Positions 27,277 through 57,172 are shown, counted from the first letter of the stretch. The stretch is DNA of 64,000 bases from Candidatus Omnitrophota bacterium (GCA_016208765.1 JACQXK010000032.1:118385-182384), one strand, 5' to 3'. The notes: generated by a model from the letters alone, not told the origin. Made by a program: numbers and translations.

Positions 27277-28149
27277 TTATACTTTCATCAACCTATTAAA
27301 AACCCGTAATATTTTGTTTAAAAAAATACAGTTCTTGATTTCTAACAAATCTAGCTCCCCATTAAGTTTGGCCAGAAATGTAAACATATTATCCGAAGAC
27401 TCTATCCCTATGCGCCTTAACTCAAACAAATCAGTGCTAACATCATTTACCCCGTTCATCGCAGTAAACCCAAAAATATAACCTGCCTCCTCGGCAACCT
27501 TTTTTACATCCTGGTTAAAATCAATCACTAAACCAAACGGATACGAAATCATATCAATCTTACTTCCAAGCTCTTTTTCTATAATTTCCTTTGAATCTGT
27601 AATTTCCTTCTTAAAATCTGTGACTTTACCCAAATTAGCATGATTAATTGTATGCGACCCAAAATCAATCCCATACCTTGACATTTCTCTTACTTGATCC
27701 CAGGCAAGGAAATGATTATAAATAGGATTATCGTTAATATCATGCGGCAATATTTTCTCTGTACCGATGTATCCTGCGGTTAAAAATATTGTTGCCGGGA
27801 CTCCTAAATTTCTTAAGATAGGATACGCATTAGTGTAGTTATCCGAGTAGCCGTCATCAAAAGTAACTGCCACTGCCTTTTTAGGCAAGCATCTTTTTTG
27901 TTTTAACAAACCACAGGCATCTTTTAATGAAAGTAAAGAATAATTCTTTGCCAAAAACTGCATTTGTTTCCTGAATTTATTTATCTTTACATTTACCTCG
28001 TGCTTTCTAAAATCGCCTACACTGTGATACCTTATAATTACCAGCTTATTCTTTCTACGGCCAAGCCAGAGAGGTAAAAAAATACAATAACCAATAACAG
28101 CAAGAAAGATCAAGATTAACTTTTTAATAAAAATCTTTAAAGCAATCAT
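27277..28149 (-). CDS. polysaccharide deacetylase (NodB homology; ArnD-like deformylase/deacetylase candidate)
   Basis: N-terminal TM helix, then a VAVTFDDGYSDNY...H motif set (the TFDDG NodB signature). 290 aa. Confidence 0.8.
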   Translation of the reverse strand: MIALKIFIKKLILIFLAVIGYCIFLPLWLGRRKNKLVIIRYHSVGDFRKHEVNVKINKFRKQMQFLAKNYSLLSLKDACGLLKQKRCLPKKAVAVTFDDGYSDNYTNAYPILRNLGVPATIFLTAGYIGTEKILPHDINDNPIYNHFLAWDQVREMSRYGIDFGSHTINHANLGKVTDFKKEITDSKEIIEKELGSKIDMISYPFGLVIDFNQDVKKVAEEAGYIFGFTAMNGVNDVSTDLFELRRIGIESSDNMFTFLAKLNGELDLLEIKNCIFLNKILRVFNRLMKV

Positions 28150-29897
28150 TTAGAACTACCTTTGTTAAAAGAATATTTTACAATCCCATACCCAAACCCT
28201 AAGGCATAAACAAAATATGCTAATGCACGCAGAAACTTAAACTCAAAAATAGCTTTTACTATCCTTAAAGGAAACCTGAATATGCGGACAAAAAATGGCA
28301 CTTTTGGCTTAAATGAATTAAGTTCCAGTGCTTCGTCTGTATCATAGATAAGTTGTGGCTGGTATTTCAGGCAGTAAGCAGAGCCCAGCCCATTTCTGAA
28401 AAATGTTTTGGCTAATTTACCGATACTACCCGGTAACGGATGATACACCCATGTATTGGGTGCAAGCACTGTCTTATAGCCTTTTTGGCGCATGCGAAAT
28501 CTTAGATCCGGGTCAAGCCCGCGCAAGATATTCTCCCTTTCTCCTCCAACTTCATCAAATACTTTCCTAGGGATAGCACAACAACCGTGGCAAGCCATAT
28601 CGCTTTCTGTTACTTCTTCCACAACCTTCATCCCAAACCGCGGGAATTCTTCTCCGGCTTTCTTTTGCAGCCAATTCGCATCCGGGGGAACTAAGATTGA
28701 CGCACCTGCCATGCCAATATCCTTATTTTCTTTAAGCGTTCTAAGAAGATTTTCAATTACATAAATGTTATCAACCCGTGAATCATCGTCTATAATAACC
28801 AAAGTATCTCCTCCAGCGGCAGAAACACCCATATTAATTGCCTTACCCTGGGGAGAAACTTTCTTTACAACCAATACTTCAAAGTTGCGATATGCCTGCC
28901 TGCTTAAATCTGCCAAAAGTTTACTAACATTGCCTCCTCTATCTCCGTCTAAAGAAGGGATAATCACCGAAACATCAGGATTCATACTATAAACAATCTT
29001 TCTAATTTGCCCGTTTTCGGAATCACTAAGAGAATGCCCTTCTTGAGAGTTTTTCTGAATAACACTGACTTCTTTTTTCTCCAGGACAAAAAGTAAACAA
29101 GAACCAGATCCTGAATCATTAACATAATCATCCCTCAATATCCGGCTAAAAACAGAAGCAATGATCTTACGATGAAAATTTATCCCTATAAAACTTAAAA
29201 CATTAGAGATAAATCTAACCATCGAACCAAGATTTACTTTGCTTATTCCAATATACTGCAGGTCCGTCCAAAGAAAAAATGTTCCTTCCACTTTAGGCGA
29301 TAAATAATATTTACTTTCTAATATTTTAAAGTTTGTTTTAGCAAAAATCCGCTTCCAAAAAGCGGCATCTTTAAGGCTATTAAGCGCCAGGCGCTTACTC
29401 AAATACCTCTTCCAGGTCAAACTCAACTTACTCAAGCCGTATTTTTTTAAGAAAACGAAAACCGGATCTTGATCACTAAAGTTTGCGCAATTAATCGTAA
29501 GCACAACTTTGGCTTTATCCTTTAAAACCCTTGAAGATTCAGACAAAACCTCTTCTATCCCTCCCTCAGGAACATGCTCTAAGAATGAATTAATTAACAA
29601 GCTTGAGAAAGAATTGTTCTTAAAAGACATGGCTCTGGCATCACAAACTACTAATCCGGAATAAACTTTCTTTCTTTTTGCTAAGAATAGATTTGCAGCC
29701 TTATAATCCAGCCCCACAGCGGAATTTCTTTCTAAAAGCACAGAAGTAAATGTGCCATCGCCGCAACCCATATCCAATATCGGCGGTTTTAATTCAACAG
29801 GAGAAATAATTCTCGCCTCAATAGCCCTCAATAAAGCCTTTGCAGGATCCCAGTGGTAGTTATATAAAAATTCGCTTAAATAATCCTTCATAGCCAT
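28146..29897 (-). CDS. SAM-methyltransferase / GT2 glycosyltransferase fusion
   Basis: N-terminal class-I MTase motif I (ILDMGCGDGTFT) and a C-terminal GT2 domain (VSVIIPSL...NFEVLVV...IDDDS DxD). 583 aa. Confidence 0.75.
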   Translation of the reverse strand: MAMKDYLSEFLYNYHWDPAKALLRAIEARIISPVELKPPILDMGCGDGTFTSVLLERNSAVGLDYKAANLFLAKRKKVYSGLVVCDARAMSFKNNSFSSLLINSFLEHVPEGGIEEVLSESSRVLKDKAKVVLTINCANFSDQDPVFVFLKKYGLSKLSLTWKRYLSKRLALNSLKDAAFWKRIFAKTNFKILESKYYLSPKVEGTFFLWTDLQYIGISKVNLGSMVRFISNVLSFIGINFHRKIIASVFSRILRDDYVNDSGSGSCLLFVLEKKEVSVIQKNSQEGHSLSDSENGQIRKIVYSMNPDVSVIIPSLDGDRGGNVSKLLADLSRQAYRNFEVLVVKKVSPQGKAINMGVSAAGGDTLVIIDDDSRVDNIYVIENLLRTLKENKDIGMAGASILVPPDANWLQKKAGEEFPRFGMKVVEEVTESDMACHGCCAIPRKVFDEVGGERENILRGLDPDLRFRMRQKGYKTVLAPNTWVYHPLPGSIGKLAKTFFRNGLGSAYCLKYQPQLIYDTDEALELNSFKPKVPFFVRIFRFPLRIVKAIFEFKFLRALAYFVYALGFGYGIVKYSFNKGSSK

Positions 29898-31468
29898 TCA
29901 CCTATTTGAGTAGATGTGGTTTTAATTCCAAATAAAGATTTCAGCAATTTGAGTTCCTTTAATTTAAACAAGACTGACAGAAGTAAATAAACAATTCCTG
30001 CTATTAACGAAATAAACAGCAAACTGAAAATTCTCCTGCTAAAACCATTGAATAAACCCAGGTATTCAAAATAATATCGTAAGAGAAAAACACAAAATCC
30101 GGAAATTAAAGTAATGATAGCCACCTTGAACAAGTAAAAGAAAAACTCAGTATTAAATTTATAATCAATGACTTTCCCTAGAAAATAATACGTCAGCAGG
30201 ACTGTATTCAATAACAATGCAATTGAGAAAGACACTGATAAAGCAACAACCGGAGTCAAATACTTCAATAAAATAAACATCAGGATACAATTAACAAATA
30301 GCCTAAAAATAAGAAAACACAAATACATGGCTGTTCTCTTTAAAACAATTGCCGTTCTTAAGCTAACTGCCTCAATACCAAGGCCTGTCAGGCCCAAAGA
30401 AAATAAAGCAATCGCTTGTGCGGTCTGGTCAGCCGTTGACCAATCAAACTTCCCATGAAGAAACAAAACTCTTGAGATCAAACCTGATAGTAAGAAAATA
30501 AGAACCGAGACCGGAATCAAAACAAATATCATTATTCGGAAAAACCGAATGATCATTTCCTTGAATCTTCCATTATTGTCCAAGATAGAGTGCTCTACCA
30601 TTATAGGATAGTAAATATAAAATGTTAATCCTTCAATAACCAAAAGAGGAGCCTGGATCACAATATAGCCGTAATTAAGTATTGAAATGGCCCCTGAGTA
30701 ATGAGAAGCAAAAATCCGAGTAATAGCCATAATGCTCTCCATCACCAACAATACTGCGACAATCATAATAAAAGATTTCCAAATTTCCGGCATCTGGCTC
30801 TTGGCTTCAAAATGTTTTTGCGAATGGCTAATTCCTTTAAAATGATCAAATGAAACAAGCTGGCCTGCCATTTTAGAAAAAGCCCCTGCTAATACGCCCA
30901 CCGCAATAGCATAAATCCCCCAGAAATAAGTAAGAAACAACACGAAAAAAAGGACCACAAAGTTATTCAAAGGCTGAGAGCAGGAAGCTATGGTTTTATT
31001 ATTGTGGCTCGTATTAACCGACTGTAAAATCGCAGCCGCCCCTCCAAACAGAATTGCAAAAGACATAACCCTTAACAAGACTACAGCCAAAGATAACGAC
31101 TGATAATCAAACCCGGGAACCAGAAATCTCAGGATAGACTCAGCGCCAAAAACTACAGCAAGACTAACTCCCAAGAGCCACAAAAGAACAACCTTTGAAA
31201 ATGACATAAACAAAATAAGCCCGTCCTCTTTTCTGTATTTTCTTACCGCAATATAAACCGGGACAAATGCAGAATATAATGCCCAGCTCACAATGCTCTC
31301 AATCCTAAGAGGAATAGCCCTGGCTGCGATAAAAGCATCGGTTATACGGGAGGCCCCGAATTTGATGGCAATAAACAGGTCAACAAAGTAACCCAAAAAC
31401 TTTCCCAGAATAATAACCGCGCCAATTAAAACAATCGGCTTCTTAAGAAATTCAAAGATATGCTTCAT
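29888..31468 (-). CDS. MOP-superfamily flippase (MurJ/MviN-like; Wzx-type candidate)
   Basis: 526 aa with about 14 TM segments. The N-terminal FGASRITDAFIAARAIP resembles the MurJ-family start. Confidence 0.65.
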   Translation of the reverse strand: MKHIFEFLKKPIVLIGAVIILGKFLGYFVDLFIAIKFGASRITDAFIAARAIPLRIESIVSWALYSAFVPVYIAVRKYRKEDGLILFMSFSKVVLLWLLGVSLAVVFGAESILRFLVPGFDYQSLSLAVVLLRVMSFAILFGGAAAILQSVNTSHNNKTIASCSQPLNNFVVLFFVLFLTYFWGIYAIAVGVLAGAFSKMAGQLVSFDHFKGISHSQKHFEAKSQMPEIWKSFIMIVAVLLVMESIMAITRIFASHYSGAISILNYGYIVIQAPLLVIEGLTFYIYYPIMVEHSILDNNGRFKEMIIRFFRIMIFVLIPVSVLIFLLSGLISRVLFLHGKFDWSTADQTAQAIALFSLGLTGLGIEAVSLRTAIVLKRTAMYLCFLIFRLFVNCILMFILLKYLTPVVALSVSFSIALLLNTVLLTYYFLGKVIDYKFNTEFFFYLFKVAIITLISGFCVFLLRYYFEYLGLFNGFSRRIFSLLFISLIAGIVYLLLSVLFKLKELKLLKSLFGIKTTSTQIGEWL

Positions 31469-32744
31469 TCTTCTTCTCTTTCTCCCATAGCCATAAGATT
31501 AACGCTGTCATTGCCCAAAAAACAAACATAATGCGCGAAATCATAAAAACCACTAAAGCATTAGAGACAATAAGTAAACCGAGAAAACCACCAAGATATC
31601 CTATGGCAAGCCCCCTGATAAAATTACTCGCTGTTTTTCTTTGTAAAAACCAAACAGTTTTAAAGATTGTAAATATTACCGATATAAAGGCAATGAAACC
31701 AAAAATTCCCATTTCAGCAAGAATCATCAGGTACTGATTTTCATAAAATACCCTTTCTCTGCCTCCTATACCTATGCCAAATAAAGGATACTGCCTTATG
31801 CCTTCCCAGGCATATTTGATTTGTTGAAAACGATAGGCAACTGAAGAATTGTTTGGATCGGAATTCAGAAAAGTTTGCTTAATAGAAACCAGGCGTTCAA
31901 ATATTGCATGGGGAGAAAGAACTGCTATAAATATCATAATAAATATTGTTAAAAATAAAATTTTTTTGCTTCTTAATGCGGAAATAAACAACAGCGAAAC
32001 AAAAAGCGCTATGTAGCTTGCACGAGAGTAAGTCCAGAATAACGGTAAGCACAACAAAATAATCCCAGCTAAAAAAATAACTTTCTTTAATAACGGCTTG
32101 TCCATATAAAGCAATATCCCAAACAATAACGATGAAAAAAACATCAACACTGCAGCAAAATGGCTGGCATCATGATAGAAGAATCCTCTTTCATAAATTC
32201 GGTAATAAAAAGGACAGCTAAAAGGATAATGCGCATAGGGGAAAAAATGTTCAATTATTCCATATCCGGCTATTAGAAAAACAGGAACAAACATCAACTT
32301 CAAGAAGAAACCAGCCTTCAGCTCTTGCTGAAAAATAACCAAGCTAAGATAAAACACAAGAAAATACTGAGCAATTTTAGTTAGATAAAAGAAACCAGCA
32401 AACGGTTCAGAAATTGTATGTCTTAAAATACCAAAGAACACAGACAACAAGCCAATAAAAATAAAAACTATAATTGGTAAATCTAACGGAAGGCTATTGA
32501 CGGCTTTTAATCTGAAGGCTGCCAGAAAAAACAACAAAACAAATACAATATCCTCAAGCTTAACAAACACTACTTCACTGCCAAGTTGAAATAAATTTAT
32601 CTTAAAAGAAAATAGAGAAAAGAAAATTAATAATGCCCAAACTAATTTTACCAGGGCAGAATACTCTTTTGATCTGGGTAGATGCGGAAAAATACTTAGG
32701 AATCTTGAAGTGGTAAAAACTCCAGAAACTTCTGCTTGAGGCAT
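31452..32744 (-). CDS. O-antigen ligase / polymerase family (Wzy_C domain) membrane protein
   Basis: 430 aa, polytopic, with Wzy_C-like blocks (TYSRASYIALFVSLL... and a periplasmic loop FLNSDPNNSSVAYRFQQI...GIGIGG). Confidence 0.6.
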   Translation of the reverse strand: MPQAEVSGVFTTSRFLSIFPHLPRSKEYSALVKLVWALLIFFSLFSFKINLFQLGSEVVFVKLEDIVFVLLFFLAAFRLKAVNSLPLDLPIIVFIFIGLLSVFFGILRHTISEPFAGFFYLTKIAQYFLVFYLSLVIFQQELKAGFFLKLMFVPVFLIAGYGIIEHFFPYAHYPFSCPFYYRIYERGFFYHDASHFAAVLMFFSSLLFGILLYMDKPLLKKVIFLAGIILLCLPLFWTYSRASYIALFVSLLFISALRSKKILFLTIFIMIFIAVLSPHAIFERLVSIKQTFLNSDPNNSSVAYRFQQIKYAWEGIRQYPLFGIGIGGRERVFYENQYLMILAEMGIFGFIAFISVIFTIFKTVWFLQRKTASNFIRGLAIGYLGGFLGLLIVSNALVVFMISRIMFVFWAMTALILWLWEKEKKNEAYL

Positions 32745-33226
32745 TAATATTCCTTCCTTTTGACGCTAAACACCACTCCCCTTAAAACATAATCTTTGTT
32801 CTCAAGAATAAAATCCTGCCCGGGGCGCAAAATATTGCTGCCATATTTAATAAACCCATAACTGTCAACAGAAGCTCTTAATTTCAAAACAACAATCTTT
32901 CCGTAAACTTCCCCGTTTTGTGAATAATCTTTTAGCCCAATTATTTGAGCCATAAAATTATTCTCTAAATCCCTTTGGCCATCGCCTATTTTCACATAAT
33001 CTTTAAGCCATTGTTTTTCTTTATTTAACAATACCTCAACATAAACTTCTTCCTGCTGAGGCATTCTTCTTATTTTCTTTAAAATACTTTTCGGGATAAA
33101 GGTGTGAGCAAAAAAAGCAAAGATTAATAAAAAAATGAAACATAAGACCAATAAATCAGCCAGATTAAAATTTTTTATAAAACTTTTTTTATCCATACCG
33201 TGCCTTTTGTTTATACTCTTAAGCAA
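32744..33226 (-). CDS. hypothetical membrane-anchored protein
   Basis: 160 aa with one N-terminal TM helix and no recognisable motif. Transcriptionally coupled within the glycan locus. Confidence 0.4.
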   Translation of the reverse strand: MLKSINKRHGMDKKSFIKNFNLADLLVLCFIFLLIFAFFAHTFIPKSILKKIRRMPQQEEVYVEVLLNKEKQWLKDYVKIGDGQRDLENNFMAQIIGLKDYSQNGEVYGKIVVLKLRASVDSYGFIKYGSNILRPGQDFILENKDYVLRGVVFSVKRKEY

Positions 33227-34071
33227 AATAAATTAGTAAAATTTTGTTTTTCTTCAGTATAAGTATCCAGTAAAACTTTTGCACTTGTTCTTACCAGTTG
33301 ATCATTAGTTGACCTTATTTCATAAAAATCAAAGCCATAGCCTGAAAGAAGCTCCAGGAATAAATTCGCATTACTCCCGCAATATTTAAGCCCAAATGGC
33401 CAAAACTCAACCAAAAGCTTAATATTGTTATTCTGCAACAAAATACCTTCCATTCCTTTTATAATCCCGGCCTCTGCACCCTGCGCATCAATTTTTACAA
33501 AATCTATTTTTCCTGAATAATCTTTGAAATAATCATCCAGGCTTATTGCGCCCACATCTATAGAATTAGGCATACTACTATCTATCAAGCGATTATCCGC
33601 CTGATTATTCCTGTTAAAACACAACCTCATTCTTTTAGACTTATCTGATACTGCTAAAGGCTCCAAAGTAACATTACGATAATTATTGCACTCAATATTC
33701 TTCTTAAGTAACTTAAAATTATTCGGCTCAGGTTCAAAAGCGAATACGCAACCAGAGTCACCGGCCAATCTCGCGAAAATCAATGTATAATAACCTATAT
33801 TTGCACCAATATCTAAAACCGTATCACCTTTTTCAATCTTCTCTTTAACTAATCTCTTAATTACAGATTCATAATTTTTGTTAATTGACAGCCTGAGTGC
33901 ATCGTATTTATCCAAAATGATCCTATCTCCATCAACTATAATCTCTGCGGGCTTGAGCTTAAATAATACATAATTATTTATAGCCCTGATAAAAGGAAAT
34001 CTTGCAAAACCGCGCCCTCCTGCAAAATTGTAAAATCTTTTGTATATTTCAAGAATCTTGATGTTTGACAT
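33211..34071 (-). CDS. FkbM-family methyltransferase
   Basis: VLDIGANIGYYT motif I, FAFEPEP and KIDAQGAE blocks typical of FkbM MTases. 286 aa. Confidence 0.8.
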   Translation of the reverse strand: MSNIKILEIYKRFYNFAGGRGFARFPFIRAINNYVLFKLKPAEIIVDGDRIILDKYDALRLSINKNYESVIKRLVKEKIEKGDTVLDIGANIGYYTLIFARLAGDSGCVFAFEPEPNNFKLLKKNIECNNYRNVTLEPLAVSDKSKRMRLCFNRNNQADNRLIDSSMPNSIDVGAISLDDYFKDYSGKIDFVKIDAQGAEAGIIKGMEGILLQNNNIKLLVEFWPFGLKYCGSNANLFLELLSGYGFDFYEIRSTNDQLVRTSAKVLLDTYTEEKQNFTNLFCLRV

Positions 34072-34077
34072 TTTTGG

Positions 34078-34992
34078 TTATTTTTTAGCGAAGACTATCA
34101 AAGAAGAAGAAACGAAAACTCTACGGAAAGTAACAAAATAAATTAAATTAGCTATAAAATTAAGGGAAATCTTTAATAACTCTACTATGTTCTCATTAAA
34201 ATTAAATGATTTATAAGGATCCCCTTTTGTAAGAAAAGAGTTTTCTACTCTTACAGAATTAAACCCGGCGCCATAGAGAATCTTTTTTATGGTTTTTGCA
34301 GTAAACCCATAATTTACAATAATTGAAGGATCCTTCGTTTCTTTTGAAAACAGTTTAAACAAATAAAATGCCCGGTGCAAATAAAAATGAAATGTAACAT
34401 TAGGGACACGTATAACGATAATTCCTCCCGGCCTTAGTATCCGGTTAAGCTCTTTAAGCGTGGACATTGGATCGCGTAAATGATCCAACACGTTCCAAAG
34501 TGTGATAACATCAAAACTGTTTTCCCCAAAACGCGCTTCCTCTATGCCTGAATTTAGAACTTCTAACCCAGATTTACTCTTTGCATAGTCACATGCATCT
34601 TTTGACAATTCCACTCCTATCGTCCGCCACCCTGAAGATTTTGCCAAATTAAGAAAAATACCCACACCACAGCCAACATCCAGAATACATCCCTTTGCTC
34701 CGCTACGCAGTAGCTCAATATCTGACAAAAATTTCTTAAAAACTCTTTCCCTGGCTCCGGAAATTCTTTCTTCCAAATCCAGCGAATGATGGCTTTTACT
34801 AAAGAAGTCCCTATTCGCCCGTTCCTTTGGGCGCGGATTGGCATAAACTAACCCGCAACAAATACACTGAACAATATTTGTATTTCCGTAATTATAAAGA
34901 TGCTTGGTATTATTGTTGCCGCACAAATTGCAACTAACAAGCTCCTGTTCATTCAGCAAATCATTCTTCATATTTTTTGTTTCCTCAGCCAC
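34078..34992 (-). CDS. class I SAM-dependent methyltransferase with N-terminal Zn-ribbon
   Basis: N-terminal CxxC...CxxC and a motif I ILDVGCGVGIF. 304 aa. Confidence 0.75.
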   Translation of the reverse strand: MAEETKNMKNDLLNEQELVSCNLCGNNNTKHLYNYGNTNIVQCICCGLVYANPRPKERANRDFFSKSHHSLDLEERISGARERVFKKFLSDIELLRSGAKGCILDVGCGVGIFLNLAKSSGWRTIGVELSKDACDYAKSKSGLEVLNSGIEEARFGENSFDVITLWNVLDHLRDPMSTLKELNRILRPGGIIVIRVPNVTFHFYLHRAFYLFKLFSKETKDPSIIVNYGFTAKTIKKILYGAGFNSVRVENSFLTKGDPYKSFNFNENIVELLKISLNFIANLIYFVTFRRVFVSSSLIVFAKK

Positions 34993-36848: not shown

Positions 36849-36876
36849 AGAATATTAAATAACCCCTGCTTTAACC

Positions 36877-41233: not shown

Positions 41234-41265
41234 TTTTAAGATAGCCGTTTTTAATTACAGCTATT

Positions 41266-41964: not shown

Positions 41965-41968
41965 GGTT

Positions 41969-43486: not shown

Positions 43487-43498
43487 TTTTTATAAAAA

Positions 43499-44641: not shown

Positions 44642-44656
44642 TCAGCTACCTCTCTA

Positions 44657-46854: not shown

Positions 46855-47684
46855 ATAATATCCGCAAACGTCCTTTCCAAGCGCTTAAAATAAAACAGGC
46901 CTGAAACAAAAATAATAACAGAAATTAAAACTTGCAAGAATAGCCAATTCCAACTAAAAGGAATGCCCAAAAAAACCCAGCGTAATCCATCGATTGCCCC
47001 TGCTACCGGATTTAAATAATAAAGCCAGAGATACTTTTGCGGGATGGCGGCTTTAAGATACGCAACCGGAGTAAGAAAGAATATTGTTTGGATAAAATAA
47101 GGCAAAATCTTGCCCACATCACGAAATTTAACACTGATAGCGGCTGCCCATAGCCCAACACCACTTGATATCAAAGTAATTAGAATTATAAAAACCGGCA
47201 AGAAAATAATAGATAAAGATAGCTGCACTCTAAAATAAAATATCATTAAAATAAGCAATACCGAAGCAATCACAAAATCTAACAACGCCCTTAAGACTAC
47301 TGACAATGGAATAATCAAACGCGGAAAATAAATTTTTGAAATCAAGTTTGTATTTGTCAGCATCGCATTTCCTGCCCCATTTACAATCTCAGAAAAATAA
47401 TTCCAGGCGATTGTGCCGCTTAAAGTTATTAGCACATACGGAACCCCGGCTGAAGGGAATTTTGCAATAACCCCAAAAACAAACGCCCAAACAAACATCT
47501 GCATAAGAGGATTAACTAGCGCCCAGGAAACTCCTAAAAATGTCTGCTTATAGCGGACCTTAATATCTCTTAAGGCAAGAAAATAGAACAACTCTCTATA
47601 CTGCCATAATTCTTGCAATTTGAGACACGCCCAGCCTTTCGTAGGCTCAATTATTATCTTATTTACAATAGTAGCTCTTTTCAT
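46851..47684 (-). CDS. ABC-2 type polysaccharide exporter permease (Wzm-like)
   Basis: 277 aa with 6 TM segments and the ABC-2 family layout. Overlaps the ATPase gene by 4 nt. Confidence 0.8.
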   Translation of the reverse strand: MKRATIVNKIIIEPTKGWACLKLQELWQYRELFYFLALRDIKVRYKQTFLGVSWALVNPLMQMFVWAFVFGVIAKFPSAGVPYVLITLSGTIAWNYFSEIVNGAGNAMLTNTNLISKIYFPRLIIPLSVVLRALLDFVIASVLLILMIFYFRVQLSLSIIFLPVFIILITLISSGVGLWAAAISVKFRDVGKILPYFIQTIFFLTPVAYLKAAIPQKYLWLYYLNPVAGAIDGLRWVFLGIPFSWNWLFLQVLISVIIFVSGLFYFKRLERTFADII

Positions 47685-47690
47685 AATTGT

Positions 47691-48281
47691 TTATTGACTG
47701 CCCGATGATCTATCCGTCTCTAACCTGGATTTGATCACCCTAGCAGGAGACCCAACTGCAATGGAATAAGCAGGGATATCCTTATTTACAAAACTATTTG
47801 CTCCAATCACGCTTCCCTTACCAATTTTAACGTTTCCTGCAATCACCACATGCGCTCCCAGCCAGCAATCATCCTCTATTATTACCGCCCCTTCACCACT
47901 AAGCGGCTGCTTAATCATCGGTTGATTTGTATCTAAAACACTGTGTTGTTGAGAAGTAATCACACAGTATGGCCCCAACATTACATTCTCTCCTAAGCTA
48001 ATCTGGGCTTTACCGGTAGCAAAAAGCATACACCCTGTATTTATCCAAGAACCTTGCCCGATAGAAATTAAATTCCAACCTTTAATTATCACCCCTGTAT
48101 GCGTATAAAACCTCCCGCAATTTTTGAGGCGTTTCTTATAAAATCTCCATCTAAATTCAGGGAAAATACCTTCTGACGGAAGATTCCTGATAAAATGCAC
48201 CCACAATGCAGCCCTATTCTCTGAATTAAATACTGAAAAATACAGCCTGATGTTATTTAATACGTTTTTAAATTTATTCAT
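47691..48281 (-). CDS. hexapeptide-repeat (LbH) acetyltransferase (WcaF/maltose O-acetyltransferase-like)
   Basis: Tandem hexapeptide repeats (ISLGENVMLGPYCVITS...IEDDCWLGAHVVIAGNVKIGKGSVIGANSFV). 196 aa. Confidence 0.8.
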   Translation of the reverse strand: MNKFKNVLNNIRLYFSVFNSENRAALWVHFIRNLPSEGIFPEFRWRFYKKRLKNCGRFYTHTGVIIKGWNLISIGQGSWINTGCMLFATGKAQISLGENVMLGPYCVITSQQHSVLDTNQPMIKQPLSGEGAVIIEDDCWLGAHVVIAGNVKIGKGSVIGANSFVNKDIPAYSIAVGSPARVIKSRLETDRSSGSQ

Positions 48282-49806
48282 GTGAGATTAGTTGATGTTG
48301 CATTGAGCGTTTTATGACCTGCTTATTCCAGTAATCATTAAGATAATTATTTACCTCTAAAGAATTTATTGCCTCTGCCTGAGATATATATTCCTGGGCC
48401 TTCTTAACATCATTAAAAACATAATTACATAAGCCTAATCCAAGGTAGGGCCAAAAACTTTGCCCATCTATTGACATAGCCTTTAAAAAATACTCCTTGG
48501 CTTTATTGAGCCTATCTGAATAATCATACCGCCAAGTAGCAAATCTAAGCATCCACAAACCAGTATAATTATATGCTTTAGATAAATTAACCGAACAAAG
48601 CCCGAATAATTTCTTAGCCTCGTCTTCAGATACTAAATTCAGACTCTTCCTTTCTTGGAATATCTCTAAGATTTTATCAGCAATTAACTGCGATATAAGA
48701 ATATAACCTTTAATATTAGGATGGTTGCCATCAATCATTAAGTCATATCCTACAAGACCATCTGCAGAATTATTTGTTAAATGATCCTCAGAATCAACCA
48801 CAAAAACATGCTCTTTGTTTAGCAAGCTTCTTAGAAAATCATTCTGGCCAGAAACAGCCCTCACAGGCATTGCATCAAAATCAACTGCTTTCTTAAAAGC
48901 CTGCTTAGCAACACTAAAATTATTCTGCTTTTGGTAACACTTTCCAAGCTGATAATGCGCTTCAGCAAAGTTGCTGCACAACGAAAGCGCCATAGAATAT
49001 AATTCTGCAGCTTTACTAAAATTATTAAAATCCAATTCTTTCTTGGCCAGTTCCATCAGGTTCTTCAGTTCATCCCTTTGGGCTGATGTTCCAGAGAAAA
49101 CCGAGCGATTCGGCTCAAAATCAGAAATATTTGATGCCAAGGTTGAGAAAATACCTACAACTTTATATTTACGCAACAAACTCTCCGCGCCCGCTACTCC
49201 TAACTTATATCTTGAAATTACCTCTTTATATTTCTTTTGTTCAAACAGCGGCTGATCAAAAAGACTCCTCTCTCCAAGCTCAAACCTGCGGACTTTTGAG
49301 CTTGGCACCAATCTATTAATTATTTTTCTTGCTAAAAAAGAATATTCATATAAAAATGCCAGGAAAATATTATTAAAGATCTCTTTGGCATATTCTTTAG
49401 TGTACCTTAAATACTCGTTGTGGCCCCCATAGAAGATACATAAAGATGGGTAGAAAATATTTTTATTCTTTAACACTACTCTTAGCCTTGTAAGATTATA
49501 GTGAAAATTTATTGCGCATTTACCAAGATTTACATAACAGACAGCCCGATTAAGCATTGAGTCACCTAACATGAAACTGACCAATTTAGGAATTGAAAGA
49601 GCTGGATCATAAGGCACCCCAACCATTGTTGATGAACCGAAATAATAAATATTAAAAGTATTCTCGGAAACTCCGCTTTTATCCGATAATTCTTTTATTT
49701 CTTTCTCCAATAACCAATCCTGCCTTTTTCTTAGAAAGAATTCCATAACAATTATTTCTGTCAAAAAGAAAATAAAAATCACCGGAATAAAATAATTATT
49801 AAACAT
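48274..49806 (-). CDS. membrane-anchored SGNH-hydrolase-like protein with TPR repeats
   Basis: N-terminal TM helix; candidate SGNH blocks (YYFGSSTMVG, YGGHNEY, MIDGNHPN = block V DGxHP) and TPR-like repeats (AEAHYQLGKCYQKQNNFSVAKQAFKKAVDFD). 510 aa. Confidence 0.45.
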   Translation of the reverse strand: MFNNYFIPVIFIFFLTEIIVMEFFLRKRQDWLLEKEIKELSDKSGVSENTFNIYYFGSSTMVGVPYDPALSIPKLVSFMLGDSMLNRAVCYVNLGKCAINFHYNLTRLRVVLKNKNIFYPSLCIFYGGHNEYLRYTKEYAKEIFNNIFLAFLYEYSFLARKIINRLVPSSKVRRFELGERSLFDQPLFEQKKYKEVISRYKLGVAGAESLLRKYKVVGIFSTLASNISDFEPNRSVFSGTSAQRDELKNLMELAKKELDFNNFSKAAELYSMALSLCSNFAEAHYQLGKCYQKQNNFSVAKQAFKKAVDFDAMPVRAVSGQNDFLRSLLNKEHVFVVDSEDHLTNNSADGLVGYDLMIDGNHPNIKGYILISQLIADKILEIFQERKSLNLVSEDEAKKLFGLCSVNLSKAYNYTGLWMLRFATWRYDYSDRLNKAKEYFLKAMSIDGQSFWPYLGLGLCNYVFNDVKKAQEYISQAEAINSLEVNNYLNDYWNKQVIKRSMQHQLISHE

Positions 49807-49842
49807 TTCTAAATTGTGCTCTATTTAATGAACTTTACCCAT

Positions 49843-50916
49843 CTATTTCTTTTTTGCGATAACAACAAAAAATCCGCCGTTTTTACTGCCTCCTGTTGAC
49901 ATGGCTATTTCAGAGAACAAAATCTCTAAGACGTGGCTTGGGGCTTCTGATAAAAAAGCGTTCTTAGAAACACCAGGGCTTCCAAAAAGCTTAAATCTTG
50001 GATAGCTTTTTACAAAAGAAAATCCGTAATCATTCAACCAGCCAAAAACTTCCCTGAGAGTATGCTTTGATTCCCTTGGGTGCTTATATTGATCGTAAAG
50101 CCAAATCTTTTTCTTTAAAGGGCTGATTTTCTTATCACCCAAAATCGGATCCAATGAATAAAAACGCTCACCGGTAAGTTTAAAAATAACCTGCCTAAAA
50201 TTAGTTATAAGCCTACCGTATTTATGATACAGGCCTATGAGAATATAACCTCCTGGTTTCACCAACCTTGATATTGCTCTAAAACCAGCCTTTGGATCTG
50301 CAGTATGATGCAGGACACCCTTAGAAATAACCAAATCAAAGGTATTTTCTTTAAAAGCCGGATAAAACAAATTCATTTGCAGAAAATGTGCGCCATCAAT
50401 TCCCGCCTTCTCTTTAAATTTTTGGCCCAACTTCAAAGAATTTACACAAATATCTGTTCCAATTACGCTTCTTCCTCTTAAAGAAAGAAAGTTAGTCAGC
50501 TGTCCAGTTCCACAACCACACTCAATAATCTTGGCCTCAAGAGGCACTGAAGCGTCTAATAATCTTTCAAACGGCCCTTCATTAAGACGCCTTGTTAAGC
50601 TATTCCCGTCACTTAAATTATCATAATTTGGAAAAGGATTTTCTTCATAGAATGATTTAACTGTATCTGTAGCTACGTCTCCGGCATTCCTGTCTTCTTC
50701 CTTATAGAATAAAGAAGGGATGTCATCAAAAAAACCATAAACATTATTACATGAATTACAAATAAACCCATTGTCCTTAAATATTATATCTTTTTGACAT
50801 TTAGGACAACATAGCAAATCAACATTCTCTTTAAAAAAACCAAAATTTACCATGATTAAGTTATTTCTAGATTTACCATAAGGTATAAATATTATCTTTG
50901 AGCTCATTTTCTTCAA
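49843..50916 (-). CDS. class I SAM-dependent methyltransferase with N-terminal Zn-ribbon
   Basis: CCPKCQKD...CNSCNN Zn-ribbon, motif I IIECGCGTGQL and VLHHT. The real start may be M22 (50853), since the first 21 codons overlap a small upstream ORF with a strong RBS. Confidence 0.7.
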   Translation of the reverse strand: MKKMSSKIIFIPYGKSRNNLIMVNFGFFKENVDLLCCPKCQKDIIFKDNGFICNSCNNVYGFFDDIPSLFYKEEDRNAGDVATDTVKSFYEENPFPNYDNLSDGNSLTRRLNEGPFERLLDASVPLEAKIIECGCGTGQLTNFLSLRGRSVIGTDICVNSLKLGQKFKEKAGIDGAHFLQMNLFYPAFKENTFDLVISKGVLHHTADPKAGFRAISRLVKPGGYILIGLYHKYGRLITNFRQVIFKLTGERFYSLDPILGDKKISPLKKKIWLYDQYKHPRESKHTLREVFGWLNDYGFSFVKSYPRFKLFGSPGVSKNAFLSEAPSHVLEILFSEIAMSTGGSKNGGFFVVIAKKK

Positions 50917-51007
50917 CTTTATCTTTTTTTGAAAGAAAATGAAAAATAATAAGTCCGCTAATTAACAACAATCCCAAAATTACAATTAACAAAGTCCATC
51001 CAGACAT
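50871..51007 (-). CDS. small (45 aa) single-TM protein, unannotated ORF
   Basis: Not in the ORF track. ATG at 51007..51005 preceded by GGAAGGAG 7 nt upstream. The ORF encodes MSGWTLLIVILGLLLISGLIIFHFLSKKDKVEENELKDNIYTLW: a hydrophobic helix followed by a charged tail. Confidence 0.4.
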
Positions 51008-51058
51008 AAATTTACTCCTTCCACTAAAAACTATCCCTCAAATCAATAAAAATAAATA

Positions 51059-53332
51059 TTAAAATATACTACTCAACCCGTTACTATCAATAACCTCAAC
51101 CCTAATTCGGTAGTTTCCCTTCTGCACTCCTCTTTCATCCGAAAGATCATCGTTGACCCAAGAAGAACCATTATAGAAACTTGATTTTGTACCATTACTG
51201 GCAAGCTTCACTTTACCAGAAACCCGATAATCTCCTTTTTCTAAATAATTATAAATGGATGTCTCAAAATCTGTCTTTGCAAAAAGAGGTCCTACAAAAT
51301 ATTCTTGATTATCAAGAATTGGGTAATCACCGTACATCTTTAAAACGCCTGCTTTTGTTTTGACATCCGGTTTATGCTCAAGCTCAATCTTAACATTTCC
51401 GCCTCTTTCTAACAAAGATAAATCTATGGGAATAGAAAACCACCTGCGCATCAAAGAAGAATCTTTTACAACATAATCGTAAGCGAAGAAATTATAACCC
51501 TTACCATCAATAGGCAATTTTCTGTTAAACCTCTTCACCTCCTGAGCGTTAACCGAAACAATCAATTCTCCAAAAGGAATAAAATCTTGTTGAAGATCAA
51601 TTAACAAATTGGCTCTTTTTGCTCCAATCAATTTGTCGCGGCCAATCACTATCTCCTGAGATACCTTTTTGCCTTTATCAAGGGTAATAAACCACTCTTG
51701 CCATGACCGGTTAAATCTAATCCCATCAGTATAAGCCCATGAATTAAAGATAAGAAGATAACATAATGAGCAAGAAATTAATACGGCAATTCTCTTTGCT
51801 TTGGATAAATTAGATAAAAGGATGCTCAGACCAAACAAAAACAAAATTACACTAATATTCTTTATTCCGAGATTAATTAAGAACGCTGTAAATGGCCTAA
51901 ACTTTCTAAAAAAGATCAGCAAAATAGGAACAGTTAAATATTGAGAAACTATATACAGACACAAGGCCGTAAACAACATTAACAAAGTTTTGTTTTTATT
52001 TTTATGGCGGAGCTTACAAAATAACTCCCATAAATAAAAACAAGTAACTATTGAAATTATAAACAACGAAGGAATAATAGGTAAAAGATAGCGCGGGTCT
52101 AAAACAATTAGGCTATTAATCAGCACCAAATAAAGAATAGGAATAGCTAAGAATATAGATAGAGGGGTCAAATAGCAGCTTAAAATCAGGCTCACAGGTA
52201 ATAAAAAGGCCAGAAACCTGAGAAATGAATCAAATAGAAAATTGGCTTGATCCGGCCACCAGAATATAGTTGAATTCCACCAATGATTAGCAATTTTAGA
52301 TAAATAAAGAGTAACAAAACCTGGGATATCTTTAGCAACTGCGCCCAAAAAAGCCTTGTAACAAATTAGATTTGGAGGATTTATCTGTCCACCCCAACTA
52401 AATCCTTGATTCTTTAACCAAGCGATTAATTGTGGGCCAAGATTAGCCCTATCCGCATCACTAAAATAAAACCAACCAACAACATCATTATTCATAGACA
52501 TGGCCAAATCACTTTTAACCAAAGAAAGTGGGCCGGAGAAATTATTTAACGTTGTTCCAAATTTATGCGATTCTAAAGAAGAAAAATAAGTCCAAATAAG
52601 AAATGGAATTAAAAAACCAGCAAAAATTAATATAATCTTGCCAGGCACGACTATCTTTTTCTTACTAAACTTAAAAAGCAAAGTGAGCCCAAGAAACAAG
52701 AAAATGTAAAGATGCATAAATGCCAAACGCCCGGTAGATAGTAAAAAAAGACTTATACCAGATAAAAAGAGGGTCACTCTTGAATTATCAAACAGCCCCC
52801 TAAGTAACAAGTATACCGTAACCACCAAAAGAAAAGTTACTATGGTTTCCTGCATAAGCAAAGACGCAAATTCTATAAAAGGCAGGTATATTACACACAA
52901 AAAAGCAGCAATAATACCGACCTTAAAACTGAATAAACGCCTGCCCAGCAGGAATACGATCACGCAGGTAAGAGAACTTAATAAAGCCTGGAAAATAAAT
53001 ATTGAAAAGAAGTTATTTTCACCGAATAGAATAAATAATAAAGCATAAAGCAAAGGCTGAATCAAACCTGTGCGGAAAACAGTTATTGGCGCAACAATCC
53101 CATATTTACTTAAAACATCCTGCCCGGAGCCGAGATTTCCTTTTAAAAGCTCGCGGAAAAATATCGGAAGCTTTGATAAAACACTATAAACCTCATTGGT
53201 TGAAGAAAGATACAGCTCTGGATCAGAACCAGGAAGTATCGTCTTCTGATAAGTAGAAAGTCCCGAGCCTAACCTAAATGATAACGCCAATAAGAAAATA
53301 ATAATTGGAAATAAAGTTTTTCTAAAACTCAT
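51059..53332 (-). CDS. GT-C superfamily membrane glycosyltransferase (ArnT/PMT-like) with large C-terminal extracytoplasmic domain
   Basis: 757 aa. The N-terminal roughly 500 aa has 12+ TM segments with a polyprenyl-P-sugar-utilising GT-C architecture. The C-terminal roughly 250 aa is a soluble domain. Confidence 0.55.
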   Translation of the reverse strand: MSFRKTLFPIIIFLLALSFRLGSGLSTYQKTILPGSDPELYLSSTNEVYSVLSKLPIFFRELLKGNLGSGQDVLSKYGIVAPITVFRTGLIQPLLYALLFILFGENNFFSIFIFQALLSSLTCVIVFLLGRRLFSFKVGIIAAFLCVIYLPFIEFASLLMQETIVTFLLVVTVYLLLRGLFDNSRVTLFLSGISLFLLSTGRLAFMHLYIFLFLGLTLLFKFSKKKIVVPGKIILIFAGFLIPFLIWTYFSSLESHKFGTTLNNFSGPLSLVKSDLAMSMNNDVVGWFYFSDADRANLGPQLIAWLKNQGFSWGGQINPPNLICYKAFLGAVAKDIPGFVTLYLSKIANHWWNSTIFWWPDQANFLFDSFLRFLAFLLPVSLILSCYLTPLSIFLAIPILYLVLINSLIVLDPRYLLPIIPSLFIISIVTCFYLWELFCKLRHKNKNKTLLMLFTALCLYIVSQYLTVPILLIFFRKFRPFTAFLINLGIKNISVILFLFGLSILLSNLSKAKRIAVLISCSLCYLLIFNSWAYTDGIRFNRSWQEWFITLDKGKKVSQEIVIGRDKLIGAKRANLLIDLQQDFIPFGELIVSVNAQEVKRFNRKLPIDGKGYNFFAYDYVVKDSSLMRRWFSIPIDLSLLERGGNVKIELEHKPDVKTKAGVLKMYGDYPILDNQEYFVGPLFAKTDFETSIYNYLEKGDYRVSGKVKLASNGTKSSFYNGSSWVNDDLSDERGVQKGNYRIRVEVIDSNGLSSIF

Positions 53333-53342
53333 CGCTAATCCT

Positions 53343-56407
<3,065 letters not shown>

Positions 56408-56409
56408 TT

Positions 56410-57150
56410 TTAATATTTTTGCGCATAAATCAATAGCGATCCTGCGATCTCCCTTAAAACCGGGATCTTCTCAATTACCTTTTCTATAAGACAAACAAAA
56501 CTAATTAGTCTTTGCGGAGTCACCGGATGAAGGAAATCAAAAGGAAAAACCGCTATATTAATAAACCCGCTTTTCTTAAGCTTGTTATTCAGATGCCATC
56601 TTACAAAGGCAGACTCACTGTCAACATCCCCACAAATCCGCTTTAAGAAAATAATATTCTTTACCAGGAATATTTGCGGATTAAGCATATTAGGTTCAGA
56701 AAAAACTAACTTTCCATTTTGCTTTAAAAGCATAAATATTCCTTTTAAGGCCGTATCAATGTTTAAATGATGCAGAATTGACACTCCTGTAATAGTATTA
56801 AATGAATTATCTTTAAAAGGCATAGCCTCAGCATCTGCGACAACAAAATATACATTTTTATTCTGAAGTTTACTTTTTGCTTGTTTTATTAAATCCAAAG
56901 AAATATCCATAGATACCAATTTCTTAATTCCTTTTTCCTGAAGACGAACAGTAAATTCACCCGTCCCACAACCTAACTCTAAGGCCACATCGGATAAAAC
57001 AAGCTCTCCTAATTTAAAAAGATAATTTGCCCTTCTTTGCGCTCTTTTTTCTCCGGCAATACCAGCCCATCCCCAAACTATCTCAGCACGATCTTTTATT
57101 TTTGCGCCGTGTGCAATCTCTAGGAATTTCTTATTAGAAATATCTTTCAT
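56410..57150 (-). CDS. class I SAM-dependent methyltransferase
   Basis: Motif I ALELGCGTGEFT and ILHHL. 246 aa. Confidence 0.7.
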   Translation of the reverse strand: MKDISNKKFLEIAHGAKIKDRAEIVWGWAGIAGEKRAQRRANYLFKLGELVLSDVALELGCGTGEFTVRLQEKGIKKLVSMDISLDLIKQAKSKLQNKNVYFVVADAEAMPFKDNSFNTITGVSILHHLNIDTALKGIFMLLKQNGKLVFSEPNMLNPQIFLVKNIIFLKRICGDVDSESAFVRWHLNNKLKKSGFINIAVFPFDFLHPVTPQRLISFVCLIEKVIEKIPVLREIAGSLLIYAQKY

Positions 57151-57172
57151 AGCATCCTTTATGCAGAAAAAA

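Follow-up and report, generated by a model that had tools for sequence, protein, structure and literature searches.

The 64,000-nucleotide stretch of DNA analysed here (hereafter the window) comes from the assembly of a Candidatus Omnitrophota bacterium (GCA_016208765.1 JACQXK010000032.1:118385-182384), and it contains a recognisable surface-glycan gene cluster with an unusual load of S-adenosylmethionine (SAM) chemistry. Eight of its open reading frames (ORFs) carry a class-I SAM-dependent methyltransferase (MT) domain, one more encodes a B12-binding radical SAM enzyme, and there are three fusions of a tailoring enzyme to a glycosyltransferase (GT): two MT-GT2 proteins, here called fusion A and fusion B, and a formyltransferase-GT4 protein. 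As a whole, the cluster is probably best explained as a mosaic of three modules within the envelope-glycan super-locus of a diderm Omnitrophota bacterium, the diderm envelope being indicated by a TonB-dependent receptor encoded upstream of the locus. Module I (19356 to ~39111) would make a WecA-initiated, flippase/Wzy-type repeat unit, module II (~39108-50916) a glycan exported by an ABC transporter, and module III (51059 to beyond 63976) would consist of lipid-carrier glycosylation cassettes.

The super-locus extends from 19356 to beyond 63976, a length of at least 45 kb, and runs past the end of the window. An initial annotation of the sequence had delimited a methylation-rich glycan locus at 28146-57150, coordinates that cut the larger locus at both sides. 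The part of the super-locus that falls within the window comprises 39 ORFs read in one direction, on the minus strand, as is every ORF of at least 100 amino acids (aa) in 19356-63976, and over 44.6 kb only two intergenic gaps exceed 100 nt. Domain calls were made by comparing all 39 ORFs with Pfam at gathering scores and with NCBIfam at curated cut-offs.

Three assembly or export routes are encoded side by side: a WecA-type initiating transferase with a MurJ-like flippase and Wzy, the Wzm/Wzt ABC transporter, and a GT2 of the polyprenyl-phosphate-sugar synthase type (fusion B) with three GT-C proteins. For the first route, Glycos_transf_4, MurJ and Wzy_C all score above their Pfam cut-offs, and flipping of the repeat unit by the MurJ-family protein is predicted from these matches. 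ABC2_membrane, ABC_tran and Wzt_C likewise exceed their cut-offs, and the Wzt matches Aquifex WzmWzt (7k2t/8dku) full length, including the carbohydrate-binding domain (237 bits, residues 50-396). Because three such routes are present, it is likely that more than one glycan is made, or else a backbone, a cap and side branches added after export. The genes concerned, apart from fusion B, are:

20321-21358, minus strand: WecA/MraY-family polyprenyl-phosphate HexNAc-1-phosphate transferase, initiating (Glycos_transf_4 124 bits; TIGR02380 WecA 120 bits, below cut-off; 8 hydrophobic segments)
29888-31468, minus strand: MurJ-family flippase (MurJ 147 bits; 15 hydrophobic segments)
31452-32744, minus strand: Wzy_C polymerase/ligase-like membrane protein (Wzy_C 63 bits; 12 hydrophobic segments)
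45598-46854, minus strand: Wzt with C-terminal carbohydrate-binding domain (ABC_tran 80.5 bits, Wzt_C 40.7 bits)
46851-47684, minus strand: Wzm (ABC2_membrane 69 bits)
51059-53332, minus strand: GT-C, PMT_2/ArnT-like, 757 aa (PMT_2 33 bits; at least 16 hydrophobic segments; absent from L088)
54802-55758, minus strand: GDP-L-fucose-synthase-like (Fcl/WcaG family) 3,5-epimerase/4-reductase (GDP-fucose synthases in the PDB at 226-202 bits; NCBIfam GDPFucSynFcl 294 bits against a cut-off of 500; 8-nt overlap with the fusion B start)
57173-58771, minus strand: GT-C (PMT_2 35 bits, with hydrophobic segments)
59990-61198, minus strand: GT-C (PMT_2 57 bits, with hydrophobic segments)

The modular arrangement was also seen when the window was compared with two relatives, L087 (GCA_020063045.1, a related Omnitrophota) and L088, a genome whose fusion B is 91% identical. 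Module I is syntenic gene for gene in L087, except that an extra B12-radical-SAM gene (L087 3497-4903) lies there between the AsnB-like gene and the orthologue of the MT gene 34078-34992, two genes that in the window overlap by 25 nt without it. L088 keeps module III. Between fusion B and Wzm/Wzt, L088 (11560-15134, corresponding to 45598-53332 of the window) has only an FkbM MT and a helix-turn-helix (HTH) protein, where the window carries genes for a GT-C, an MT, a tetratricopeptide repeat (TPR) protein and an acetyltransferase. The relatives retain modules I and III but carry other genes between fusion B and Wzm/Wzt, which shows that the modules evolve as separate cassettes. Two points weigh against this division of the locus: the module boundaries are a reading of gene order, and a search of 44500-64000 for promoters and terminators found 68 and 15 sites, where 68.4 and 14.3 were expected, so that neither signal exceeded chance.

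The eight MT domains, all on the minus strand, score above the Pfam gathering threshold, and none of the remaining 31 ORFs showed a further MT domain in Pfam. Together with the radical SAM gene they are:

28146-29897, minus strand: MT-GT2 fusion A (Methyltransf_25, 48.9 bits at residues 40-127, and GT2)
33211-34071, minus strand: FkbM-family MT (Methyltransf_21 69.4 bits; TIGR01444 103 bits against a cut-off of 37.7)
34078-34992, minus strand: class-I MT with a hydrophobic C-terminal tail at residues 269-301 (Methyltransf_23 83.1 bits; hydrophobicity scan)
41266-41964, minus strand: small class-I MT, partner of the radical SAM gene (Methyltransf_11 41.8 bits)
41969-43486, minus strand: B12-binding-domain radical SAM enzyme of class B architecture (B12-binding 80.5 bits against a cut-off of 32.1; Radical_SAM 72.7 bits)
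49843-50916, minus strand: class-I MT of 357 aa with an N-terminal extension of ~120 aa (Methyltransf_11 75.7 bits, residues 132-227)
53343-54809, minus strand: MT-GT2 fusion B (Pfam and NCBIfam; MT domain 47.8 bits in Pfam)
55769-56407, minus strand: small class-I MT (Methyltransf_11 69.3 bits)
56410-57150, minus strand: small class-I MT (Methyltransf_11 73.3 bits)

MT genes account for 8 of 25 genes in 28146-57150 and for none of the 21 scanned genes at 1-19333 (one-sided hypergeometric p = 0.004). The initial annotation had described a locus unusually rich in MTs, with at least eight such domains (one of them FkbM, at 33211), two of them joined to GT2 domains in one polypeptide, as well as a B12-radical-SAM, an AsnB-like, a FemAB/GNAT-like and a hexapeptide gene. 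Pfam annotation of each ORF, TIGR01444 for the FkbM protein and a search for homologous fusions bore out all of these calls. Motif I was inspected by residue in three of the domains. The weakest call, 41266-41964, where Methyltransf_11 matches the C-terminal half only, has motif I VLDIGCGE and an acidic residue ending beta-2 (KLD) in an alignment of homologues; motif I of fusion A is LDMGCGDG; and in an alignment of the fusion B family G49, T52, G53 and D68 are invariant, the middle position varying between G, A and S. The surroundings of several of the stand-alone MTs are conserved as well. The adjacency of the radical SAM gene and an MT of the 41266 type recurs in L083, L084, L086 and L087, and orthologues of the MTs 55769 and 56410 flank fusion B in L012, L034, L037, L052, L057, L063, L065, L070, L079 and L088.

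There is about an even chance that some of the eight domains are not sugar O-methyltransferases and instead form methyl esters of uronic acids, N-methylate amino sugars or methylate lipid or phosphate. In keeping with this, none of the seven non-FkbM domains reached an NCBIfam equivalog cut-off, their best matches being generic UbiE/UbiG/BioC-like models; the products of the locus include amino sugars and, probably, uronic acids (DegT, AsnB-like); and WbdD of E. coli O9a methylates phosphate. Such activities refine the three-module explanation and do not replace it.

The radical SAM enzyme (41969-43486) belongs to a large, uncharacterised family found in Omnitrophota, bacteria of the candidate phyla radiation (CPR), Bathyarchaeia and Nanoarchaeota. 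The cysteines of its CxxxCxxC motif (C210, C214 and C217) do not vary among 25 homologues, and its N-terminal domain aligns, from about residue 5-30 on, with the cobalamin (Cbl)-dependent proteins PhpK, BzaD, HpnR and ApyD. The block GT2-GT4-radical SAM-MT-GT4 occurs in the same order in two other metagenomes (L083 and L084, with 65% identity of the radical SAM protein), and this conservation indicates that the enzyme probably acts on glycan. More distant homologues lie among genes for GT4, MT and lipopolysaccharide (LPS) heptosyltransferases. Homologues are also found fused to GT2 (P0130, P0131), to an MT homologous to that of fusion A (P0145) and to a nucleoside diphosphate (NDP)-sugar epimerase/dehydratase of the short-chain dehydrogenase/reductase (SDR) superfamily (P0244), with L086 145-2730 among the fused cases; the gene for the radical SAM-SDR fusion is followed by DegT, nucleotidyltransferase, GT2, MT and a second radical SAM gene. 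These pairwise fusions link the radical SAM, MT and GT activities, and the radical SAM-GT2, radical SAM-MT and radical SAM-SDR proteins suggest a physical coupling of the radical enzyme to GTs.

The class B architecture and the glycan context, both part of the initial annotation, thus stand, and the C-methylation of an unactivated carbon that it had suggested becomes one option among several. From its sequence and predicted fold, the chances that the enzyme C-methylates a sugar appear evenly balanced. A methylase is favoured by the strong B12-binding domain and by the domain swap that puts either this enzyme or an MT before the same GT2 module. Several results weigh against it. No NCBIfam equivalog cut-off was reached by the protein, the best model being BchE, a cyclase (263 bits against 481), followed by HpnJ, also below cut-off, and no characterised member is more than 21% identical to it. 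An AlphaFold2 (AF2) model (pLDDT 91) is about equally close to TsrM, AprD4, MgmA, OxsB, CysS and TokK, and the highest TM-scores (0.71 and 0.78) are those of AprD4, a sugar 1,2-diol dehydratase that does not methylate. AprD4 is also the best sequence match in the PDB (92 bits). It is therefore a serious possibility, if one that falls somewhat short of an even chance, that the enzyme carries out an AprD4-like 1,2-diol dehydration, an epimerisation or an OxsB/HpnJ-like rearrangement on a sugar, and that the adjacent class-I MT gives the sole methyl group at that step. In almost every case the radical SAM protein has a class-I MT next to it or fused to it, which would be redundant if both only methylated. 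However, the AprD4 sequence match covers the radical SAM core only (residues 172-399), the model matches TsrM, OxsB, TokK, CysS and MgmA in fold across its two domains, Cbl-dependent methylases make up four of the six families of structural neighbours (TsrM, MgmA, CysS and TokK), and in P0130 and P0131 the radical SAM domain takes the same N-terminal slot before GT2 as the MT in fusion A.

Like the Cbl-dependent radical SAM enzymes GenK, GenD1, Fms7 and MoeK5 and the diol dehydratase AprD4, the protein has an N-terminal Rossmann-type B12 domain followed by a CxxxCxxC core, and the substrates of those enzymes are carbohydrates, in natural-product sugars. Unlike these antibiotic-pathway enzymes, the window gene lies in a surface polysaccharide locus and its family is fused to GT2, MT and NDP-sugar SDR domains; what is new is the polysaccharide setting together with the fusion to GTs. 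A 2022 review gives no polysaccharide example among Cbl-dependent radical SAM enzymes, and our literature searches for B12-radical-SAM enzymes in O-antigen clusters gave no relevant report. As to the supply of cobalamin, the TonB-dependent receptor at 11164-12954 (minus strand) bears on the question; in NCBIfam it scores highest with the model of the vitamin B12 receptor, reaching 120 bits where the cut-off is 600. No cobalamin riboswitch was found in the window.

Fusion A (28146-29897) is one uninterrupted ORF of 583 aa, in which Pfam places the MT at residues 35-194 and GT2 at 298-506. With boundaries set from stand-alone and differently fused homologues, its modules are an MT at ~3-275 and a GT2 at ~300-580 (~280-580 in the comparison of differently fused homologues), of which the latter contains a DDD motif and ends in a hydrophobic tail; they are joined by a low-complexity linker of ~25 aa that has no coiled coil. 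The full-length architecture is rare. An exhaustive HMMER search of 1.84 billion representatives found one other 50%-identity cluster that matches over the full length (P0124), and P0135 matches in two separate stretches. Both halves also exist as stand-alone proteins, and the GT2 module is mobile, occurring at 41-68% identity fused to the B12-radical-SAM domain noted above, to a CDP-alcohol phosphatidyltransferase (P0129), to a carbohydrate esterase family 4 (CE4) deacetylase (P0142), to GT4 (P0143 and P0144) and to a second copy of itself (P0128). The same architectures of fusions A and B recur in independent assemblies, so neither is a frameshift or assembly artefact. The possibility that the two fusions are paralogues was rejected, as BLASTP found no meaningful similarity between them. 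The initial annotation had tied both fusions to polyprenyl-phosphate-sugar synthesis, and this fits fusion B, which has an ArnC/DPMS/GtrB-type GT2. Fusion A is not such a synthase, since its GT2 is of another type, EpsD/rhamnosyltransferase-like in NCBIfam, is unrelated to fusion B and lies beside the flippase and Wzy genes.

Fusion B (53343-54809) is also a single uninterrupted ORF, of 488 aa, with Pfam MT and GT2 matches at residues 25-181 and 234-476 and domains that span 1-222 (MT) and 233-487 (ArnC/DPMS/GtrB-type GT2, DPMS being dolichol-phosphate mannose synthase). It belongs to a family present in at least 593 GTDB species genomes at 45-58% identity over the full length. Its hosts include Hydrogenedentota, Nitrospira, Myxococcota, Bacteroidota, Planctomycetota, cyanobacteria, Elusimicrobiota, CPR lineages and a Methanosarcinales archaeon, and one cultured carrier is Leptolyngbya sp. 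CCNP1308. Members are named at NCBI as bifunctional class I SAM-dependent methyltransferase/glycosyltransferase family 2 protein, and no functional study of the family was found in the literature. Motif I of the MT and the invariant DxD motif of the GT (D339-x-D341) are conserved across phyla. In a profile search of the PDB with the GT2 half, DPMS (5mlz) was the top match at 2.8e-16, followed by ArnC and GtrB; Foldseek gave ArnC at 1.2e-13, then DPMS and GtrB; and in NCBIfam the top GT matches were AglJ and a Dol-P-hexose transferase model, with ArnC next. The AF2 model (pLDDT 82, pTM 0.83) consists of two packed globular domains with no long coiled coil. It has a conserved aromatic-rich helix (377-397) and an amphipathic C-terminus formed by a single helix (467-487), and in the model these could fit an acceptor site at the membrane interface. 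A Kyte-Doolittle plot had pointed to residues 202-220 as a possible transmembrane (TM) helix, in which case the membrane would have separated the MT from the GT2. This was rejected, because in the AF2 model these residues form the last beta strand of the MT fold.

We then compared the neighbourhoods of 80 loci of the fusion B family. In 17-23 of them the gene immediately upstream of fusion B is Fcl-like and closely resembles 54802-55758. In a CPR bacterium and in the Methanosarcinales archaeon, Gmd (at 573 and 536 bits, the cut-off being 415), the Fcl-like protein and fusion B are encoded, in that order, in one operon. The archaeal operon (L017, a metagenome-assembled genome, 6056-9413), whose fusion B is 50% identical to the bacterial protein, suggests either transfer of the cassette between domains or a binning error. 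At least one separate small MT, orthologous to 56410, 55769 or 41266, is encoded within 1.5 kb in 36 of the 80 loci; B12-radical-SAM, AsnB-like and GT-C genes recur less often. In the window itself the GT-C gene 51059-53332 adjoins fusion B. From these relations and the fold class we infer that fusion B makes a methylated polyprenyl-phosphate 6-deoxyhexose.

Four observations count against this assignment. Fusion B has no TM helix, unlike ArnC, GtrB and archaeal DPMS; no Gmd gene was found in the window; a recognisable GT-C is encoded within 8 kb in only 10 of the 80 loci; and in Nitrospira (L032, L036, L040, L041, L045, L046, L059 and L073) fusion B and one small MT form a two-gene cassette among housekeeping genes (NDK, GcvH, TyrRS) with no other glycan gene within 8 kb. 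By a crude measure, a protein with at least eight predicted TM segments is encoded within 6 kb in 48 of the 80 loci. The rarity of GT-C genes nearby and the Nitrospira context indicate that a lipid-carrier/GT-C route is not constant in the family. As to the first point, some members of the polyprenyl-phosphate GT group have no TM helices, among them human DPM1 and the catalytic domain of M. tuberculosis Ppm1.

For MT-GT2 fusions the initial annotation had pointed to methylated mycobacterial and cyanobacterial polysaccharide clusters. The closest precedents found documented for an MT joined to a GT are the terminator-polymerases WsaE of the Geobacillus stearothermophilus S-layer glycan, ORF6 of K. 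pneumoniae O7 and WbdD of E. coli O8/O9a, which share with the window an N-terminal class-I MT and a GT2 in one polypeptide, and Wzm/Wzt with a carbohydrate-binding domain. In those systems a methyl or methyl-phosphate cap is recognised by the carbohydrate-binding domain of Wzt, and only capped chains are admitted. By analogy, the GT2 of fusion B might be an ordinary Leloir transferase that adds a 6-deoxyhexose to a lipid-linked or soluble acceptor, the MT then capping the residue in a WsaE/WbdD-type termination with neither a polyprenyl-monophosphate sugar nor a GT-C step. WsaE and O7 ORF6 do show that N-terminal MT and GT2 modules can act as terminators, fusion B lacks TM helices, GT-C genes are missing from most neighbourhoods of its family, and in L088 the cassette lies directly upstream of Wzm and of Wzt with its carbohydrate-binding domain. 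We nevertheless regard this alternative as unlikely, since the closest relatives of fusion B are all polyprenyl-phosphate GTs (AglJ, Dol-P-hexose transferase, ArnC, DPMS and GtrB) and not polymerising rhamnosyl- or mannosyltransferases, a GT-C gene directly follows fusion B in the window, the two helices named above fit a membrane-interface acceptor site in the model, and neither fusion has the coiled-coil ruler, a feature called characteristic of the terminator-polymerase family. Fusion A differs from the terminator-polymerases in its position too, as it adjoins flippase and Wzy genes and lies 16 kb from Wzm/Wzt.

A polyprenyl-phosphate-sugar synthase has parallels in ArnC/ArnT, GtrA/GtrB/GtrC and the Citrobacter PPRS + MATE + GT136 system, in which a GT2 at the cytoplasmic face loads polyprenyl phosphate, a GT-C transfers the sugar outside the cytoplasm, and auxiliary nucleotide-sugar enzymes diversify the sugar. 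Unlike the synthases of these three-component systems, fusion B has a fused SAM-dependent MT, up to two more MTs beside it and no TM helices, the donor is probably a GDP-6-deoxyhexose, and no dedicated small flippase was recognised in the locus. The fused MT and the missing TM helices are the new features. To our knowledge, methylation of a carrier-linked monosaccharide has not been described.

The initial annotation had predicted one heavily O-/C-methylated, amidated and acetylated polymer, a picture in which all eight MTs would act on a single repeat unit and both fusions would make methylated polyprenyl-phosphate sugars; the co-directional, nearly gapless genes and the scatter of MT genes across the whole cluster would suit it, but with three alternative assembly and export systems, relatives that swap genes between fusion B and Wzm/Wzt while keeping modules I and III, and a fusion A GT2 of another type, it is very unlikely.

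For the three-module explanation, the substrates, the order of the steps, the cap and the radical chemistry are predictions from the domain identities, fusions, synteny, neighbourhoods and fold relations given above. In module I, a repeat unit would be built from amino sugars and modified by N-formylation, partial de-N-acetylation, amidation and O-methylation, the last by fusion A, the FkbM MT and the membrane-tailed MT; the unit would then be flipped and polymerised or ligated by the Wzy_C proteins. In module II, a glycan would be built in the cytoplasm by the GT2-GT4-radical SAM-MT-GT4 block, decorated by the FemAB-type and hexapeptide acyltransferases and exported by Wzm/Wzt. The carbohydrate-binding domain of Wzt implies a terminal cap, probably methyl, that would be needed for export, and one of the module II MTs may add it; 49843-50916 can be put forward as a candidate chain-capping MT. 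In module III, the Fcl-like enzyme would supply a GDP-6-deoxyhexose (GDP-L-fucose-like), which fusion B would load on polyprenyl phosphate and O-methylate, and the two neighbouring MTs would methylate it further. Three MT domains in the window would thus serve the three free hydroxyls of a 1-linked 6-deoxyhexose. After flipping, a GT-C would move the methylated deoxyhexose onto a glycan outside the cytoplasm, post-export. Where an MT is fused to a GT, the sugar just transferred would be the sugar that is methylated. Because SAM is cytoplasmic, all nine SAM-dependent steps should precede flipping or export.

The remaining genes of the locus are:

19356-20318, minus strand: NDP-sugar 4,6-dehydratase/decarboxylase-type SDR, last gene of the locus (GDP_Man_Dehyd 203 bits, Epimerase 174 bits; NCBIfam LegB-like 176 bits, below cut-off; position kept in L087)
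21362-22411, minus strand: DegT aminotransferase (Pfam, 320 bits)
22383-23093, minus strand: WbqC-like protein (Pfam, 247 bits)
23097-23816, minus strand: PIG-L de-N-acetylase (Pfam, 64 bits)
23890-25896, minus strand: formyltransferase-GT4 fusion, 668 aa (Formyl_trans_N 97.7 bits at 119-226; Glyco_transf_4 and Glycos_transf_1 at 285-628; also in L087, at 13830-15794)
25893-27062, minus strand: GT4 (Pfam)
27277-28149, minus strand: CE4 polysaccharide deacetylase (Pfam; PgaB-like N-deacetylase domain 116 bits)
32744-33226, minus strand: DUF4330 protein with one N-terminal hydrophobic segment (Pfam, 35.4 bits; place kept in L087)
34968-36848, minus strand: AsnB-like glutamine amidotransferase (Asn_synthase 330 bits and GATase_7; TIGR01536 498 bits, above cut-off)
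36877-37980, minus strand: GT4 (Pfam)
37981-39111, minus strand: CE4 deacetylase (Pfam)
39108-40208, minus strand: GT4-like protein (Pfam)
40205-41233, minus strand: FemAB/GNAT aminoacyl- or acyl-transferase (FemAB 106 bits, Acetyltransf_6 57 bits; FemX-like and pepcterm_femAB models both below cut-off)
43499-44641, minus strand: GT4 (Pfam)
44657-45613, minus strand: rhamnosyltransferase-like GT2 (Pfam)
47691-48281, minus strand: hexapeptide O-acetyltransferase (Hexapep 54.9 bits; WcaF/WbbJ-like, below cut-off)
48274-49806, minus strand: membrane-anchored TPR protein (TPR matches)
58786-59985, minus strand: membrane-anchored ArnC/AglJ-like GT2 (Glycos_transf_2 123 bits; AglJ 111 and ArnC 68 bits, both below cut-off)
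61195-62558, minus strand: frameshifted Wzy_C-like gene (tblastn of the intact 470-aa L088 orthologue)
62561-63976, minus strand: Wzy_C + TPR protein, which may run past the window (Pfam)

The SDR at 19356 was considered as the missing Gmd and rejected, its Gmd score being only 44 bits. The GT2 at 58786-59985 has four to six C-terminal hydrophobic segments against two in ArnC or GtrB and may contain a fused GtrA-like flippase part, for which there was no supporting Pfam match. The frameshift in 61195-62558 lies near 61590, and the L088 orthologue aligns there in two frames at 87-91% identity; the split gene is either a pseudogene, possibly a phase-variable one, or an assembly error. No NCBIfam equivalog was found for the three GT-C proteins or for a 359-aa membrane protein at 61479. 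An Arn (L-Ara4N) pathway, considered because SDR, DegT, formyltransferase, CE4, GT2 and GT-C genes occur together, was ruled out, as every ArnA/B/C model falls far short of its cut-off and the formyltransferase is joined to GT4. The minus strand likewise carries all listed ORFs with a Pfam or NCBIfam domain match in the rest of the window, and along 1-64000 the plus strand has a negative GC skew throughout. The G+C content is ~41% among the housekeeping genes and drops to 33-37% across the glycan locus. A cluster at 471-5859 (minus strand), unrelated to the glycan locus, encodes complex-I/membrane-bound-hydrogenase-like subunits (49 kDa/NiFe, 30 kDa, 20 kDa and NuoH-like) with ferredoxin and FAD/NAD-binding proteins. 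No tRNA gene and no Rfam family was found in scans of all 64,000 nucleotides.

Two other known systems were compared. Models of the XrtA/PEP-CTERM exopolysaccharide (EPS) loci (TIGR03108 for the amidotransferase, TIGR03019 for FemAB, the stp1-3 GT4s and PrsT for the TPR protein) are among the top NCBIfam matches of the AsnB-like, FemAB-like, GT4 and TPR proteins (34968-41233, 23890-25896 and 48274-49806). An XrtA/PEP-CTERM system was rejected, since these scores are below the cut-offs (626 against 817 for the amidotransferase, 59 against 260 for FemAB and 208 against 409 for the GT model) and the window contains no exosortase and no PEP-CTERM protein genes. By its predicted functions, the locus shares with the O antigen of R. 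tropici CIAT 899 ABC export, gmd/fcl-type sugar supply with fucose or 6-deoxytalose, and methyl and acetyl decoration, which give a hydrophobic glycan; the R. etli CE3 O antigen is also methylated and rich in 6-deoxyhexose. Unlike the fusions described here, the WrtF fucosyltransferases of rhizobia are stand-alone Leloir GT-A enzymes, and we know of no MT-GT fusion, GT-C step or radical SAM enzyme in rhizobial O antigens; our literature search on methyltransferases of the R. etli O antigen gave no relevant report. A 2026 preprint on Omnitrophota reports GT and radical SAM domains together in long proteins and LPS/capsule genes in hypervariable regions, and both points agree with what was observed in the window.

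Two components merit further work, namely the fusion B family and the family of B12-radical-SAM enzymes associated with glycans. We propose tentatively, and with some doubt, that Cbl-dependent radical SAM enzymes are a widespread, unrecognised class of surface-polysaccharide tailoring enzymes and that the fusion B family is also a new variant of lipid-carrier glycosylation. The former may be spread over Omnitrophota, CPR bacteria, Elusimicrobiota and some archaea, and may place methyl groups, or carry out other radical chemistry, at unactivated sugar carbons. In the latter, the sugar may be O-methylated on polyprenyl phosphate, possibly up to per-methylation by three MT domains, before transfer by a GT-C. 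Should these inferences fail, the locus would be a large but ordinary O-antigen/EPS-type cluster. If they hold, two enzymologies would be new for polysaccharides, namely B12-radical chemistry that acts on surface sugars and the methylation of monosaccharides still linked to a carrier. Fusion B represents a family that crosses phyla, from Nitrospira to cyanobacteria and Methanosarcinales, and the GT2 of fusion A, with its five different tailoring-domain partners, offers a catalogue of transfer-and-modify enzymes for glycoengineering. Methyl ethers and C-methyl branches make glycans hydrophobic, block glycosidases and alter recognition by phages, predators and hosts, and Omnitrophota and CPR bacteria are ultra-small and often attached to a host.

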